This document shows, piece by piece, positions 15,001-24,000 of a stretch of DNA of 64,000 nt. Position 1 is the stretch's first letter. Every line of letters starts with the position of its first letter. The position numbers were made by a program. The DNA is from Candidatus Omnitrophota bacterium (GTDB lineage: Bacteria > Omnitrophota > Gorgyraeia > JAHJTE01), in the NCBI GenBank assembly GCA_018830005.1, contig JAHJTE010000002.1:267809-331808 (forward strand), in the 5' to 3' direction.

Positions 15001-18000
15001 AATATATTTTTAGCTTCTCCTACCAAGCTTATAGTTTTGACACTATTGTAAGAATTAACTATTCTCATCCTGCAAGACCTATAATTATAATTTATGAACT
15101 GCAGAATTCTGCTATTATCTAAAACCGCATATCTCCTACCTGAAGGTTCAGTAATCTTTCCTAAAAAGCTATGTTTGAAGCAAGTCTTTAAACAATTCCA
15201 AAAGTGGCTTATTATCTTGTGTATCTGACTAGCGTCATAGATCTCTCTCCATATCTGTTTGTTGCGATTTAAAAATAAAGAAAGACGTTTAAATACATAT
15301 ATCGAAATGCTTGTTTCTAAAAAACTTTTCATTCAATATCCTTTTTTTCTAAACCGATTATAGTTCCGTAGAAACTATAGAAATCTGGAGAAAACGTAAA
15401 AGTGCTTCCAATTTTCAGCAGCTTATTCTCAAAGAAATAACCAGTATTTTTACGATCGCTTATCACTTCAAGTTGCAAAATTAAATCCCTTTTTCCAGAA
15501 CCATCTATGACACTCAAAACTTTTCCATCTCCCACAACTTTGGCAATTTGGGTCGGTGTATTTGAAATAATTTTAACTATTTTAACTGCAGGCCTGTTAG
15601 CCTCAAGTTCTAACCACTGATTCTTTACAATTTGTATCTGTATATCCCCTTCCTTTACAAGTTTACCTACATCTGGATCTAACTCCTCAACCCTCAACGT
15701 TAATAGCACTGTCTCTAAATGTTCTAGGTATTCTATCTTAGGAGTCTCTACAGTAGAAACTCTATGTACAAAATAATATATTGGAATGAGTAATAACAAA
15801 AAGGCAGCTACTAAAAAATCTATAATGTTTATCTTTTCAAATAGCCTTCCTTTTTCATCTATAATCTTCATTTTTATCCCTCCATTTTAAATTTCCGCAA
15901 AGAAGTTTTCTCTGATACCTTTAAGATCTCCTCCCCACCAAGATCGAATCATGATAAAGCTTTGTGATTTCATTTAATTTTTTACTGCAAAATCAATAAT
16001 ATTACCTCGAACGCTATATAAACTTGTGTTTAATGTAATAGTATTACCTATCAAGATCGGAAAATCTTTATAATAATATTTTTCATTTTTTTTCAAGGCT
16101 AGCACATCTACCGATAAAATAAAATCTTTATAAAGTGGATTTTCAACATAGGCAAACTCTTTCCCATCGAATTTCGCTACTGCTACTGTCGAAGTCTTTA
16201 CATCAAAATAAAGTGGATTTTCAACATAGGCAAACTCTTTCCCATCGAATTTCGCTACTGCTACTGTCGAAGTCTTTACATCAAAAATCGAACGAATTCT
16301 GCCTATGGTCTTACCAAAATTATCTTTTTCAATATCTCCTTCTCTTGCTACATTAGCCACCTCTTGAATAATCCCTGAACATTTAATACGCAGTGTCAAC
16401 CACTTTTCTTCAAAATAGGCAATACCTAATATCGCCTTTGCTTTATATTTATCTGTTACAAACTCAAAATGTGTGTCGCGCCCCACTCTCTTACCTTCAA
16501 AATAAAGATTGCCATTATTGTCTACTTGACATCTCATTCTTATCTTTACTGGTATTTGCTTTATCTGCTCATCCTGAACTATTAAAAAATCTCCGCTCTT
16601 CGCATTGATATTAATATAGCCGATTTGAGGTTTGCCAATCTCTAAAATCTCAGCTAACACCTCGCCATTTCTATCTAAAACCTTATCCCCAACGCAAACT
16701 AATTTAAGTGTATTTTCGTTTAAATCTTTTAGTGTAATATCCAAATACAATGTTCTCTCTTCCAATCCACCTTGTTGCTTGAACATAAAGGTTGCTGTAT
16801 ATTTATCAGTATTAAACTCAAAAAAAGGATTGGAAAATAACCGGCTATTTTTATAATATAGATTGCCATCCAATCTAGTTTCTGCCCTCAGCCTGAGTTT
16901 CGCAGAGATCTGTTTTAAGTTTGAATCTTTTATAGTTATCGCCTCTTCCTCACTTAACTTAATCTCATAAAAATAAGGCTTAATCTCCTCTAGACTTATT
17001 ATCTGGGCTATAGGCTTTCCATCCTTATCAAACTCAGCATCTCCAACTGAAAGACTCTTTGCTACTTCGGGTTCTAACATTACAAACAAACAGTGGAAAT
17101 CTGCCTCAACGCTTTCGCCCCACATTTTATATTCCTTAGTGTATACCTTGTAAGCAAAATAAGAGATAGGCAAAAGGAAAATCAATAAAAATATTACTGA
17201 GAAATCTATAACGTTTATCTTTCCGAATAGCTTTCCCTTTTCATCTAAGATCTTCATCTTCTCTGCTCCTTTTTTTTCAGCAAAAAATTTATTCCATTGG
17301 CAGCAAAAATTAATACAAAAGATTCCACGGCCCACCTATGCCTTCCATCTAAATTATAAAGGGCATGTACTAAAGTTAACGTTACTAAAAATAAAACCAC
17401 TGAAATCGTACCATATTTGATACTTTGAGAAGTTAATCCTGTTGCAAACTTTTGATAAATTCCAAGAATAAAAAATGCCAAGATAAATATCCAGTAAAAT
17501 TTGTAAATATCAAAATAAACTTTCGGATACTCGAGGCCTTGTGTCGGAGTAAACCACCAGAAATATTTTATTTTTTTAAAATATAAAACCAATGACTCTA
17601 AAGGGTGCTGTTTAATAAACTCTAATCCCTGTTTATAAAAATATTCCTTTTGGCCAAATTCATCCATACTTAAAATAGTCTTACGAAATTCTTGCGGAGC
17701 AATTTCAAATATAAAATCTCCATTTAAGGTCTTATTTGTTCCGGTTGCATCTTCATTGTAACCTAACCAAAATGCAAGAGCTGAATCATTAGGCGATATT
17801 ACAACTCTATCAAAGACAATATAATTTCTAACCCACAATGGAAGCAAAACTACTGTTATGCTAATCAATATGAGTGTGATCACCCTGACGCATAACGCTT
17901 TATCATCTCGCAGCTTCAAAAAAATGAAAAGCAAAACAACAAATAAGAATGGAGCTATTGTAGAGCGACTAAGTAAGGCCGGTCCAAAAGTTATCCCAAA

Positions 18001-21000: not shown

Positions 21001-24000
21001 TTGCTACAACAAATCCACTTGTATAGTCTTTAAAAGAACTTCCTAAAAGAAAGGATATAGAAGAATTCATTGCTCGGCTTAAAATCACTGCTATCCAGGA
21101 ATCAACTGGCCCCCTTATATCCTTACCACCTTTAATGAACCGAGAGCCTACACAGATATCATAACCCTCATGTACCTTATTAATTAATTCAACAAGCTTA
21201 AACGGAGGCATTGAAAAATCACAATCCATCCACGCCACAAGATTGCCTTTTGCAGCTTGAATCCCTGTCCATATTGCAGATGCCAATCCTTTCTGATTTA
21301 CCCTGCGAATTACCTTAACATTATCATTAGCATCAAAATAATTCTGCGCTATCTCCCAAGTCCTATCTGGAGAATCATCATCAACTACAATAAATTCAGG
21401 ACTAACGCCAATATTATTTTTAATATAAAGTTCTATCTCGCAAATAAGATCAGTTATATTTTCTGCTTCGTTGTAAGTAGGTAAAATTATGGAGATACTT
21501 TCATTGTTATTCTTTCCCATCTTCACTCCAATAATAACCGCAATCTTCTCGAGCAACTCCTGACATACTTTTATCTTTAGGGTCTATAGGATAGACCTTG
21601 CAGAAAAAAGGCTGCCTCTCATAGACTTGGCATCTTCCACCTTTAAAATGTCTACACCATGACTTATTTAGAAGGCAACAGCGGCCGCATTTTTTGCATT
21701 CTCCTTTGCGCATCGATAAAGAATTATTCACATAGCGTGGCCGGAAAAGAACAAGAAAACGGCGTCGAAATCCAGAACGCAAAACAACTAAAAAATTAAC
21801 TTTTTTATTTGAGTCTACCATAATTAAACAAATGCAACTAAATTTCCAGAATGTATTATTTATAATTGTTTCTATAAATTATATATAGCAAAAAATCCCC
21901 TTATCTGCCCTTTTAACTCCGTAAAGGATCTTATGGATACTAACCTTTTCAAAATGTAAGATGATCGAAGGTAGAATGCCCTATTGGCAAAATCTAAAAA
22001 TTCTTTAAATTCTTCCTTAGTCATGGATTCTGGAGTAAACATTATTGCAGAATGATCTAGGATACTGCAACCTTTGCTAAAATCAAATTCATAGCCTCTC
22101 TTTAGGAGTGTCAGGTAAAGCTCTGTTCCAGGCAGAGGAACAAACTTATTAAAATGTGCATAATCGAGCCTTAACTTAATAGCGAAATCTAAAGTGCGCC
22201 TTAAGCTCTCCATAGTTTCTCCTGGGGTGCCAACAATAAAATCGGCGCGGACACTCAATCCAGCTCTATGGGCCAACTTAACTGCTCTCTCATTTTGCTC
22301 AACAGTATTTCCTTTATTAAGTGCTTTCAACATCCTCGCATCGCCAGATTCCAAACCATATAGAACTTGCCAACAACCAGCCTGCTTCATTGCTTTTAGT
22401 AAACCTTCGGAAATCGCAGTTACTTTAGTCAGACAAGTCCAGGGTATCTTAATTTTCTTCTCTTTGAACTTTGCACATATTTCTAAGACCCTTTTCTCAT
22501 TTAAGGTAAAGGTGTCATCAAAAAATCTTAATTCTCTGGCACCAAATTTAAATATTAACTCTTCTATCTCTGCGATTATATTATCTGGGGTACGCTCTCT
22601 ATAGCTACTGCCAAATACACCGCGGTCGCAGAAAGTGCATCTTGAAGGACATCCTCTTGTAGTTATTAGTACGCCTAAAGGTAATCTTCTATATGAGGCT
22701 GGCGTGGGTTTATAAGCTTCAAGCGGCGGCAATAAGTGCCTAGCTGGAAAAGATAAAGAATCTAAATCTGTTACGAATTCTCTAGGCCTGGTTTCTATTA
22801 CCTTACCATTTTCTTTATATACAATCCCATTTATGTCTCTAAGATCAGTGAGTCCCTTATTTTGAATTCTCTTTATTAGCTCTAAAAAAGTAACCTCGCC
22901 CTCTCTCATAACTCCAACATCAAAATAAGGGCATTCCATCGTCTCTTTTGACATAGCAGTAAGATGAGGCCCGCCTACAACAATTATTGCGTCTGGCAAT
23001 GACACTTTAATATTCTCAGCCACTTTCTTTACGCTCTCAAAAACCGGAGTTGTACCAGTAATGCCAATTACATCTGGCCTCTCTCGCATCAATAGTCCAA
23101 TCAATTCTGAATGCGAAATTCTAATACTGCAATCAATTATCTTAACATCATAGCCCTCCTCCTCCAGAGTAGCTGCCAAATAAGCAAGACCCAATGAAGG
23201 GATAACATTAACCACTGACTTCATGCTCCTTGTTTTGCCAACCAAATCGTCTGTGGTAATCGGCGGCTCTATAAGGGTAATCTTCATTCCCATTTATCTT
23301 GCCTTAAGCTAAATATAGCCTTGAAAATAATAGTAAATTATTCCTAGATACTCATGCAAAATGCCTTTTAGCTGCTGAAGGCTTATCTGTTTTAGAACTT
23401 TTTTGCCTTCCTGATTAATGCCATGACTATAGAACAGACTCTTGGTTATTGGTGTATATAGTACTTCTGTGTCTGGTGCATTTTTTCTAAATACCAGTGA
23501 AACGCGGCGCATATGATAGGGAGAACTGATTAAAAGAATTTCCTTCCAGTCATTTCTTTCTAGAATCTCTCCTGTAAACAATACATTCTCATATGTATTT
23601 TTTGCTTTATCTTCTAAGATTATGCGTCCTTCTGGCATACCCAAGGATACAGCTAAGGCCTTCATGACCTGTGGTTCATGAAATATATAGGTATAACCTG
23701 AAGAAAATATCAAATGATTAGCATATCCTTTTCTGTATAATCTGACTGCATGCTGAACCCGCTCTTGATATCCCTGTCCAGCCATTCCTGATTCTCCCAC
23801 GCCACCAGCAAAAACAACTATAGCGTCAGCCTTCTGGAAGGCATCAGAAATCATCAATGGCCTTGCGCAAAACCAAACTAAAGGAGTGTAAAATATAAAT
23901 AGATAAGTAAACAAGATAGCAAGGCCTAAACTTAGAGCCCTTTTTCGTGCTGTCTTATAAAATGTAAGCAGGCTCCTCTGCCAATCAACTGAAGTCTTGA

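Follow-up and report, generated by a model that had tools for sequence, protein, structure and literature searches.

A 64-kb stretch of DNA from a metagenome-assembled genome (MAG) of Candidatus Omnitrophota (contig JAHJTE010000002.1, positions 267,809 to 331,808; hereafter the window) raises the question whether its soluble glycosyltransferases of family 2 (GT2) and its membrane glycosyltransferases of the GT-C type together form pathways in which a sugar is loaded onto a lipid carrier in the cytoplasm and transferred at the outer face of the membrane. Domain scans show the window to be one continuous surface-polysaccharide locus; all 55 open reading frames (ORFs) of at least 150 amino acids (aa) lie on the minus strand, coding sequence makes up about 96% of the window, and its GC content is near 34%. 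The ORFs listed in an initial annotation are present where it had placed them, all on this strand. On the basis of sequence comparison and structure models we consider it probable that this Wzx/Wzy-type surface-glycan locus contains two distantly paralogous extracytoplasmic glycosylation modules of the Arn/Gtr/Rgt type, here called A and B.

Each module contains one short GT2 enzyme:

20774-21520, minus strand: GT2a (module A), candidate soluble polyprenyl-phosphate glycosyltransferase of the DPM1/ArnC type, 248 aa, PF00535 110 bits
47143-47871, minus strand: GT2b (module B), second soluble polyprenyl-phosphate-type GT2, 242 aa, PF00535 76 bits

The initial annotation had read both genes as DPM1/ArnC-like, which is borne out by the PF00535 matches and by the closest solved relatives, i.e. 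dolichol-phosphate-mannose synthase (DPMS), ArnC and GtrB. The length of GT2a is counted from the ATG used in that annotation, which is also the start called in the public assemblies. In a PDB search, residues 8-231 of GT2a align to residues 24-241 of the P. furiosus DPMS (5mlz, E 2e-36), an alignment that spans the catalytic domain and the interface helices of the latter; the next-best matches are ArnC (E 6e-16, residues 8-223) and GtrB (E 6e-15). Compared to DPMS and ArnC, GT2a keeps the DxD motif (as D-C-D), GSRF, SGF and EIP..R..G.SK, and its C-terminal sequence is 'EIPYYCAPRRSGISK'. GT2b ranks the solved structures alike but with weaker scores (DPMS E 1.9e-11 for residues 6-175, ArnC E 1.4e-6). 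The best NCBIfam models are PgfS (74.2 bits, cut-off 500), ArnC and the dolichol-phosphate-hexose transferase for GT2a, and PpgS (87 bits, cut-off 370) and AglJ (82.5 bits) for GT2b, all of them below the equivalog cut-offs; residues 10-213 of GT2b align to positions 5-201 of the 226 of the PpgS model. GT2a combines a GT-A catalytic domain carrying DxD with acceptor-side homology over nearly the whole of that domain, and the same holds for GT2b by its DPMS and PpgS alignments. In neither protein did we find a hydrophobic or transmembrane (TM) segment or a synthase-like C-terminal domain, and the TM or flippase-like C-terminal domain of processive synthases, which would have spoken against the proposed role, is thus missing from both. 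Two other GT2s of the window served as controls (GT2c, 26355-27287, and GT2d, 53090-53884). These matched generic GT2 structures and neither DPMS, ArnC nor GtrB, and were rejected as further lipid-phosphate-sugar synthases.

The proposed partners of these enzymes are four membrane proteins that score as follows against the PMT_2 family PF13231, the gathering score of which is 26.1:

17254-18504, minus strand: GT-C1, PMT_2 family, 416 aa, PF13231 45.7 bits
41308-42660, minus strand: GT-C2, PMT_2 family, 450 aa, two extra N-terminal TM helices, PF13231 37.8 bits
42687-44357, minus strand: GT-C3, 556 aa, C-terminal alpha/beta domain at about residues 398-552, PF13231 37.1 bits
44364-45677, minus strand: GT-C4, PMT_2/PMT family, 437 aa, paralogue of GT-C1, PF13231 60.0 bits and PF02366 44.1 bits

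Three of them had been listed in the initial annotation and are confirmed here; its count for the array was incomplete, as GT-C2 had been overlooked. AlphaFold2 models, built on homologue alignments, were obtained for GT-C1 (pLDDT 92.4, pTM 0.91) and GT-C3 (pLDDT 86.5, pTM 0.88). All of their significant Foldseek matches in the PDB (E<=0.001) are GT-C enzymes (AglB, STT3, ArnT, ALG3/9/12, PglB, PMT, DPY19, AftA and Emb), so that a transporter or other family, which was the alternative to be feared, does not appear among the structures matched by either model. For GT-C3 the E values were 7.8e-8 for STT3 and 2e-5 for ArnT, and ALG12/9 matched as well. Profile comparison by hhalign connects the GT-C1 family over the full length to GT-C4 (99.9%, E 3e-34) and to GT-C2 (94%, E 8.6e-8). 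The comparison with GT-C3 was not significant, and the assignment of GT-C3 therefore rests on Pfam and the structure model. The single sequences of GT-C2, GT-C3 and GT-C4 gave no matches among PDB sequences. A profile of the GT-C3 family matched GPI mannosyltransferase I weakly (E 0.006), and the profile of GT-C1 found ArnT (5ezm, E 7.9e-5) as the sole solved match at E<=0.001.

Acidic residues are present in the first loop of all four proteins, and they are conserved in the families of GT-C1 and GT-C3. In GT-C1 the loop carries the motif W38-E39-Y40-E41, in which E39 and E41 do not vary among 15 homologues with identities as low as 34%; in the model these two residues open the first loop helix (H39-48). 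Further invariant motifs of GT-C1 are HPG (126-128), RN (226-227), FWWF (315-318) and GRHRW (387-391). GT-C3 has a canonical D39-E40, with E40 invariant and D39 kept in at least 90% of 26 sequences. The acids of GT-C4 are D38 and D43, the former aligning to position 36 of GT-C1 and through it to D55 of ArnT, and GT-C2 has D104 ('GD104S') in the loop that follows its third N-terminal TM helix. Judged by topology, these residues would lie on the extracytoplasmic side. Both marks of the GT-C superfamily, the fold and an acidic residue in loop 1, are thus found in the GT-Cs of the window. From their sequence relationships we infer that they use a polyprenyl-phosphate-linked sugar as donor.

The structure matches also bear on a different reading, according to which the GT-Cs act on undecaprenyl-diphosphate (Und-PP)-linked oligosaccharides as an oligosaccharyltransferase (OST), ligase or polymerase, in the manner of PglB, AglB and STT3, while the short GT2s build the repeat unit and have no connection to them. 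Indeed, AglB and STT3 are the top Foldseek matches for both models, loci of this kind often contain GT2 genes in any case, and a flippase for a lipid-phosphate-sugar was not found in the window. However, the TM-scores to OST structures are about 0.5 and do not exceed the values for ALG9/12 or ArnT, and the motif WWD[YWF]G (including the WWDYG of OSTs) is absent from all four proteins. A large periplasmic C-terminal domain is lacking in GT-C1, GT-C2 and GT-C4 (416-450 aa), a C-terminal soluble domain being present in GT-C3 only, and the NCBIfam model of archaeal STT3 gives 20.9 bits with GT-C4 (cut-off 450). Moreover, the Pfam and profile matches are to PMT_2 and ArnT, a group that uses lipid-phosphate-monosaccharides, and the adjoining GT2s are specifically of the DPMS/ArnC/PgfS type. 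Taking both sides together, we hold the use of Und-PP-oligosaccharides to be very unlikely.

The subfamily to which GT-C1 belongs is large (1,994 clusters at 50% identity, E<=1e-30) and appears to be uncharacterised. Natural fusions of the GT-C1 type occur among the top profile-search matches (P0160, P0097, P0168, P0212, P0118 and P0146): one with an N-terminal GT2, three with a C-terminal methyltransferase dependent on S-adenosylmethionine (SAM) and two with a C-terminal GT4. They suggest that the family is functionally linked to enzymes of the GT2c-like, methyltransferase and GT4 kinds and that its C-terminus is cytoplasmic. P0160 was considered as Rosetta-stone support for the pairing of GT2a or GT2b with a GT-C and was rejected, since its GT2 part is orthologous to the generic GT2c.

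In module A, the genes are ordered GT2a, 4,6-dehydratase, aminotransferase and GT-C1, with gaps of 3-27 nt or overlaps, and form one tight operon. The closeness of GT2 and GT-C that the initial annotation had noted in this first module is confirmed, with the qualification that the dehydratase and the aminotransferase lie between them. The other genes of the module and its surroundings are:

18508-19779, minus strand: sugar aminotransferase of the DegT/ArnB/PseC/LegC class, directly upstream of GT-C1, PF01041 411 bits
19748-20746, minus strand: NDP-hexose 4,6-dehydratase/epimerase, LegB-like, PF16363 218 bits, TIGR04180 (LegB) 258 bits (cut-off 475)
21507-21821, minus strand: Cys-rich small protein of 104 aa, CxxCxxCC-like, between rSAM1 and GT2a, weak PF03692 (YkgJ-like)
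21872-23293, minus strand: B12-binding radical SAM enzyme rSAM1, BchE/HpnJ-like, upstream of GT2a, PF04055 and PF02310
23309-25177, minus strand: fusion of a GT4 (TuaH-like) and a DUF218 (ElyC-like) domain, 622 aa, from domain scans
15974-17257, minus strand: DUF4330 membrane-anchored protein, 427 aa, PF14221, one N-terminal TM segment, start overlapping the GT-C1 stop
15329-15871, minus strand: second DUF4330 gene, PF14221

The aminotransferase scores 349 bits with the NCBIfam model of LegC, 282 with PseC and 228 with ArnB, and rSAM1 scores 213 bits with BchE and 197 with HpnJ, all of these under the cut-offs. The gene for the small Cys-rich protein shares 14 nt with the start of GT2a, and the related locus L003 has an orthologue (137 bits) in the corresponding place; rSAM1 or the anchor-less GT2a could be the partner of this protein. 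The presence of a 4,6-dehydratase, and not of a UDP-glucuronate decarboxylase, implies that the sugar would be a 4-amino-4,6-dideoxyhexose or another amino sugar rather than 4-amino-4-deoxyarabinose (Ara4N).

The DUF4330 genes suggest proteins as alternative acceptors. In this variant the mechanism would be the same, with an O-glycosylation that resembles the PMT or Pgf systems and the co-transcribed, membrane-anchored DUF4330 proteins as candidate substrates. A DUF4330 gene directly follows GT-C1 with overlapping stop and start, and a DUF4330 gene likewise lies downstream of the GT-C1 homologue in five Omnitrophota loci. In addition, GT-C4 passes the Pfam model of PMT, and the best NCBIfam model of GT2a is PgfS, from a protein-glycosylation system of S. 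mutans. We nevertheless consider protein acceptors quite unlikely: the domain scans of the GT-Cs gave no MIR domain or other PMT-specific feature, DUF4330 is absent from most loci with this GT-C outside the Omnitrophota, and the genes that surround the modules, among them Wzx, Wzy_C, WecA-like and many GT4 genes, are typical of glycan assembly. As a side observation, the first DUF4330 gene contains a perfect tandem duplication (78 bp x 2, 16130-16286) that yields an in-frame repeat of 26 aa. In an independent ENA assembly of this sequence (L001) the unit occurs once only, and the Logan contig L002 ends within the repeat; the duplication may be either a true polymorphism or an assembly artefact.

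Module B holds GT2b and the array of GT-C2, GT-C3 and GT-C4, together with three further genes:

48469-49476, minus strand: GFO/IDH/MocA oxidoreductase, UDP-N-acetylglucosamine 3-dehydrogenase-like, first in the conserved block, PF01408, NF040723 163 bits (below cut-off)
47861-48469, minus strand: hexapeptide-repeat N-acyl/acetyltransferase, LpxD/NeuD-like, directly before GT2b, PF00132, LpxD 104 bits, NeuD 91 bits
45715-47118, minus strand: B12-binding radical SAM enzyme rSAM4, HpnJ/BchE-like, between GT2b and the GT-C array, HpnJ 209.5 bits (cut-off 577.6)

The order oxidoreductase, X, GT2b, GT-C4, GT-C3, GT-C2, GT4 is conserved in L051 (the complete 1.55-Mb Omnitrophota genome CP070837.1) and in L052, a contig of a second Omnitrophota genome, including the tandem GT-C triad, and the orthologues of the oxidoreductase score 597 and 588 bits, respectively. 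What stands at position X before GT2b differs between the three: the window has the hexapeptide acyltransferase, L051 a formyltransferase (6965-7969) and L052 a SAM-type methyltransferase (7139-7933). This position resembles a 'swap slot', through which the carried sugar would receive different N-substituents. A variable N-capping slot before GT2b mirrors the formyltransferase step of ArnA before ArnC and thus indicates an amino-sugar route like that of Arn or Rgt. Modules A and B are distant paralogues, as seen from the identities between GT-C1 and GT-C4 (29%), GT2a and GT2b (27%) and rSAM1 and rSAM4 (35%), the last two being mutual best matches among the four radical SAM enzymes compared.

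The association of GT2 and GT-C extends well beyond the window. We collected 45 non-redundant loci with GT-C1 homologues from Omnitrophota, Planctomycetia, Acidobacteriota, Chloroflexota and others; many of these loci end early, and the neighbour counts are therefore lower bounds. At least 20 of the 45 loci have a GT2 gene no more than 3 kb away from the GT-C1 homologue, as do 12 of the 18 from Omnitrophota or close metagenomic relatives. For at least 13 of these 20 neighbouring GT2s the best match is a polyprenyl-phosphate glycosyltransferase, of differing subtypes. Four are orthologues of GT2a (L003, L007, L023 and L036), four align with the model of ArnC or PgfS from end to end, at 171-225 bits (L012, L015, L024 and L043), and for five more the best NCBIfam model is that of ArnC, PgfS or AglJ. 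Several of the GT2s beside GT-C1 homologues are full-length ArnC/PgfS-like proteins of 308-316 aa. The classification was made by NCBIfam scans, since a regular expression for the C-terminal 'EIP..G.SK' proved too strict; a match to the ArnC model, obtained in 20 of 23 cases, is not discriminating alone, as the PgaC model also matched 20. The finding that orthologous GT-Cs stand beside non-orthologous GT2s of the same functional class is good evidence of a functional pair. Indeed, the pairing of a lipid-phosphate-sugar synthase with GT-Cs, as put forward in the initial annotation, is supported, and the comparative loci and the conservation of module B strengthen the case for functional coupling.

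Other neighbours recur as well. In nine of the 45 loci a DegT aminotransferase gene is found no more than 4 kb from the GT-C1 homologue. A Wzy_C/WaaL-like gene and an epimerase gene often occur in synteny with these homologues; a Wzy_C gene was found within 10 kb in nine related loci. The best-conserved neighbour across phyla is the GT4-DUF218 fusion, homologues of which lie within 6 kb in 19 of the 45 loci and score 570-800 bits, versus 150-290 bits for the GT-C itself in cross-phylum genome loci. These homologues span Omnitrophota, Planctomycetia and Acidobacteriota (L003, L005, L007, L010-L013, L015, L018, L021-L023, L026, L029, L039, L040, L042, L043, L046 and L048). The E. coli DUF218 proteins ElyC and SanA are reportedly linked to envelope and peptidoglycan precursor metabolism (PMC3879167, PMC12176290). 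In locus L004, whose GT-C1 homologue is 40% identical, a gene for a putative deacetylase of the YdjC family (7066-7914) lies between the GT2 gene and those of a B12-binding radical SAM enzyme and the GT-C. The YdjC family includes NaxD, which deacetylates undecaprenyl-phosphate (Und-P)-linked N-acetylgalactosamine. No YdjC gene was found in the window.

A third alternative concerns the radical SAM enzymes. It holds that the B12-binding members are integral to the modules and that, ahead of the GT-C step, they C-methylate the polyprenyl-phosphate-linked sugar or rearrange it in the manner of HpnJ. Next to the polyprenyl-phosphate-type GT2 gene there is a gene for such an enzyme in modules A and B and in L003, L007, L012, L018 and L051, with a small ORF between them in two cases, and in L004 the two genes are 2.2 kb apart; over all loci at least three gene orders occur. 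Moreover, rSAM1 and rSAM4 are each other's closest paralogues among those compared, the best models of both include HpnJ, and rSAM4 aligns with the HpnJ model nearly end to end. HpnJ modifies lipid-linked glucosamine after the action of the GT2 HpnI and the YdjC deacetylase HpnK (PMC13459092), and L004 combines GT2, YdjC, radical SAM and GT-C in one locus. The HpnJ scores are, however, about 200 against a cut-off of 578, the module-B block has no radical SAM gene in L052, while in L051 this gene comes after the GT-Cs, and with at least six B12-binding radical SAM genes in the window their adjacency is partly to be expected by chance (about 0.25 per gene). The enzymes could equally well methylate nucleotide sugars or the finished glycan. 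An integral role in the modules is therefore unlikely in our estimation. If it were true, it would amount to a tailoring of the sugar at the level of the carrier lipid, a class undescribed for any Arn/Gtr/Rgt-type system, and the three tandem GT-Cs might use the tailored donor to build or decorate an extracytoplasmic oligomer. Searches of the literature for GT-C and polyprenyl together with radical SAM, or for cobalamin-dependent radical SAM enzymes together with O-antigen, returned no precedent, and a preprint on Omnitrophota genomes does not discuss these genes.

The density of radical SAM genes in the window is unusually high, and the Omnitrophota loci L003, L007 and L051 are similarly rich. 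Six of the genes encode B12-binding enzymes, all on the minus strand (1-978, 21872-23293, 29942-31435, 36541-38001, 45715-47118 and 61791-63170), the first being cut by the window edge and recognised by eye only; a SPASM radical SAM gene lies at 32780-33811, also on the minus strand.

To which of the known systems, then, are the two modules closest? By sequence, the proteins of the window would work like components of the Arn, Gtr and Rgt systems but are not orthologues of ArnT, PMT or OST. None of the four GT-Cs matches the NCBIfam model of ArnT at E<=1e-3, and GT-C1, with 416 aa, a small helical outer insert only and a variable position at D55, lacks the features that define ArnT. Likewise, PF02366 is passed by GT-C4 only and a MIR domain was found in none of the four, which sets them apart from PMT. 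A protein 100% identical to GT-C1 is named 'MAG: glycosyltransferase family 39 protein [Candidatus Omnitrophica bacterium]' at NCBI (database record); this label reflects the PMT_2 match only. The protein is also encoded on a 215-kb metagenome contig at ENA. A Leptospira rfb locus, to which the GC content and a weak match to LA_3751 had seemed to point, was rejected as the source in view of the exact match to the Omnitrophota MAG protein.

The likeness to Arn consists of an aminotransferase, a polyprenyl-phosphate-type GT2 and a PMT_2-type GT-C in one operon, and of an N-capping enzyme directly before the GT2, which is a formyltransferase in the block of L051. Unlike the Arn system, the window lacks equivalents of ArnA, ArnD and ArnE/F, the scores are far below the Arn equivalog cut-offs, a 4,6-dehydratase stands in place of the UDP-glucuronate decarboxylase, GT-C1 has no ArnT periplasmic domain, and GT2a and GT2b are without the C-terminal TM helices of ArnC. 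In Rhizobium, in work of Brown et al. from 2012 (cited in PMC9393093), the GT2 RgtE reportedly serves several GT-Cs (RgtA-D) in the galacturonosylation of lipopolysaccharide (LPS) core and lipid A. Module B, with one GT2 and three tandem GT-Cs in three genomes, would resemble this arrangement, although the sugar is here probably an N-modified amino sugar and not galacturonic acid.

Like human DPM1 and PpgS, GT2a is without a TM domain, and PpgS is the best NCBIfam model of GT2b. PpgS feeds the GT-C Rv3779, which decorates arabinogalactan. In contrast to the P. furiosus DPMS, the four-helix TM domain is absent from GT2a and GT2b, and the genomic partners (aminotransferase and N-acyltransferase) suggest an amino sugar instead of mannose. 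The Gtr, CsbB/GtcA/YfhO and PgfS/PgfM systems share the general scheme, in which a GT2 makes a lipid-phosphate-sugar that is flipped and used by a polytopic GT-C-like transferase to decorate a pre-assembled glycan or a protein, and GtrB and PgfS are both among the best matches of GT2a; here, however, no GtrA/GtcA gene is present in the window and the GT-Cs are of the PMT_2 type and neither Gtr-type nor YfhO. Finally, the hopanoid system HpnI/HpnK/HpnJ resembles these loci in having a GT2, sometimes a YdjC protein (L004) and an HpnJ/BchE-like radical SAM enzyme in one operon. It differs in that the window has no hopanoid genes and in that GT-C transferases are present, which implies that the lipid-sugar is a donor and not the end product.

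The mechanism that we propose for the two Arn/Gtr/Rgt-type modules would start with cytoplasmic enzymes that tailor a nucleotide sugar, probably an amino sugar. In module A, the 4,6-dehydratase and the aminotransferase would lead to a sugar of the 4-amino-4,6-dideoxyhexose type. In module B, the 3-dehydrogenase-like oxidoreductase and the N-acyltransferase would give a 3-oxidised, aminated and N-acylated sugar of the N-acetylhexosamine type, with the aminotransferase encoded elsewhere. At the inner leaflet, GT2a and GT2b would then load the sugar onto undecaprenyl phosphate or a different polyprenyl phosphate, and after a flip of the lipid-phosphate-sugar across the membrane the PMT_2-type GT-Cs (one in A, three in tandem in B) would transfer the sugar at the periplasmic face. 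The likeliest acceptor would be the locus's own glycan, either Und-PP-linked or already ligated, or else LPS core; LPS core or lipid A (as in Rgt and Arn) and envelope proteins may be considered as alternatives.

Around the modules the locus contains, among others, the following genes:

9799-11631, minus strand: WecA-like initiating transferase, from a domain scan
8565-9863, minus strand: Wzy_C-family protein, O-antigen ligase/IctB-like, PF04932 70 bits, IctB 98 bits, RfaL 36.5 bits
31432-32724, minus strand: MOP/Wzx flippase-like gene, from domain scans
51625-53100, minus strand: second MOP/Wzx flippase-like gene, from domain scans
3433-5178, minus strand: DUF2079 polytopic membrane protein, candidate for a fifth GT-C-like enzyme, PF09852 217.6 bits, many TM segments

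The Wzx/Wzy context that the initial annotation had assumed is represented by two flippase-like genes and one Wzy_C/O-antigen-ligase-like gene. The product of the last may ligate or polymerise the glycan, itself a possible acceptor. In the domain scans the locus also encodes many GT4 and GT2 enzymes, NDP-sugar epimerases and dehydratases, several methyltransferases, NeuB, a cytidylyltransferase, an AsnB-like amidotransferase and a carbamoyltransferase. DUF2079 proteins we take to be members of the GT-C clan; the protein of the window gave no significant hhalign match to the GT-C1 family.

Some observations on these genes stand apart from the modules. The initiating transferase is an unusual fusion that begins with a WecA/MraY-type domain (PF00953) and continues with additional TM helices and a CoA_binding_3 domain, and the same architecture is present in L003. 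The CoA_binding_3 domain normally forms the N-terminal part of phosphoglycosyl transferases of the WbaP/WcaJ type. The DUF2079 gene comes after a carbamoyltransferase gene (5596-7413) and an ORF for a small membrane protein (5209-5595, 129 aa, 3-4 hydrophobic segments), all on the minus strand. At 54813-63170, again on the minus strand, lies a sub-cluster like those for nonulosonic acids, with NeuB (56672-57754), an ATP-grasp protein (57729-58685), a metallophosphoesterase, a short-chain dehydrogenase/reductase, a cytidylyltransferase (61061-61843) and a 613-aa protein resembling Glyphos_transf and Epimerase_2 (54813-56654). It suggests that a sugar of the sialic-acid family is part of the glycan of the locus.

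Several points weigh against the two-module interpretation. Every match to a named enzyme model lies far below the equivalog cut-off, and the donor sugar cannot be assigned from the scores. Polyprenyl-phosphate glycosyltransferases of the GT2 family are anchored to the membrane by C-terminal TM helices (ArnC, GtrB and the P. furiosus DPMS) or by a partner subunit (human DPM1-DPM3); GT2a and GT2b have no such helices, and no partner was identified for them. In the GT-C1 family the position aligned to D55 of ArnT (residue 36) is variable, and the conserved acids come three and five positions later. Since polysaccharide loci of any kind are rich in GT2 genes, adjacency is in part to be expected by chance, and the neighbour counts stand without a matched background rate; the sole GT2::GT-C fusion found (P0160) carries an orthologue of GT2c (195 bits) and not a GT2 of the GT2a or GT2b type. 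As to the flip, no gene like GtrA/GtcA, like ArnE/F or of the small multidrug resistance (SMR) type was found in the window, and the two MOP/Wzx-like proteins are the only flippase candidates; the product of 5209-5595 is the only unassigned small membrane ORF. Lastly, the organism is uncultivated.

Considered as a whole, the finding is sound but ordinary: a known strategy in an expected application within a poorly studied phylum, made at the level of annotation, in which the genes already bear a GT39 label at NCBI and the family members are new. The recurrent B12-binding radical SAM neighbour is the only unusual lead. For the families involved, the analysis defines a large GT-C subfamily of about 415 aa, marked by the motif set WEYE/HPG/RN/FWWF/GRHRW and by a conserved GT4-DUF218 partner, as well as a compact conserved block of an oxidoreductase, a variable N-capping enzyme, a GT2 and three GT-Cs. 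The Omnitrophota are a phylum of mostly uncultivated, ultra-small bacteria. They appear to decorate their surface glycans outside the cytoplasm via a lipid-phosphate-sugar relay, of the kind that also underlies polymyxin resistance (Arn), the serotype conversion of O-antigens (Gtr) and the assembly of the mycobacterial wall.

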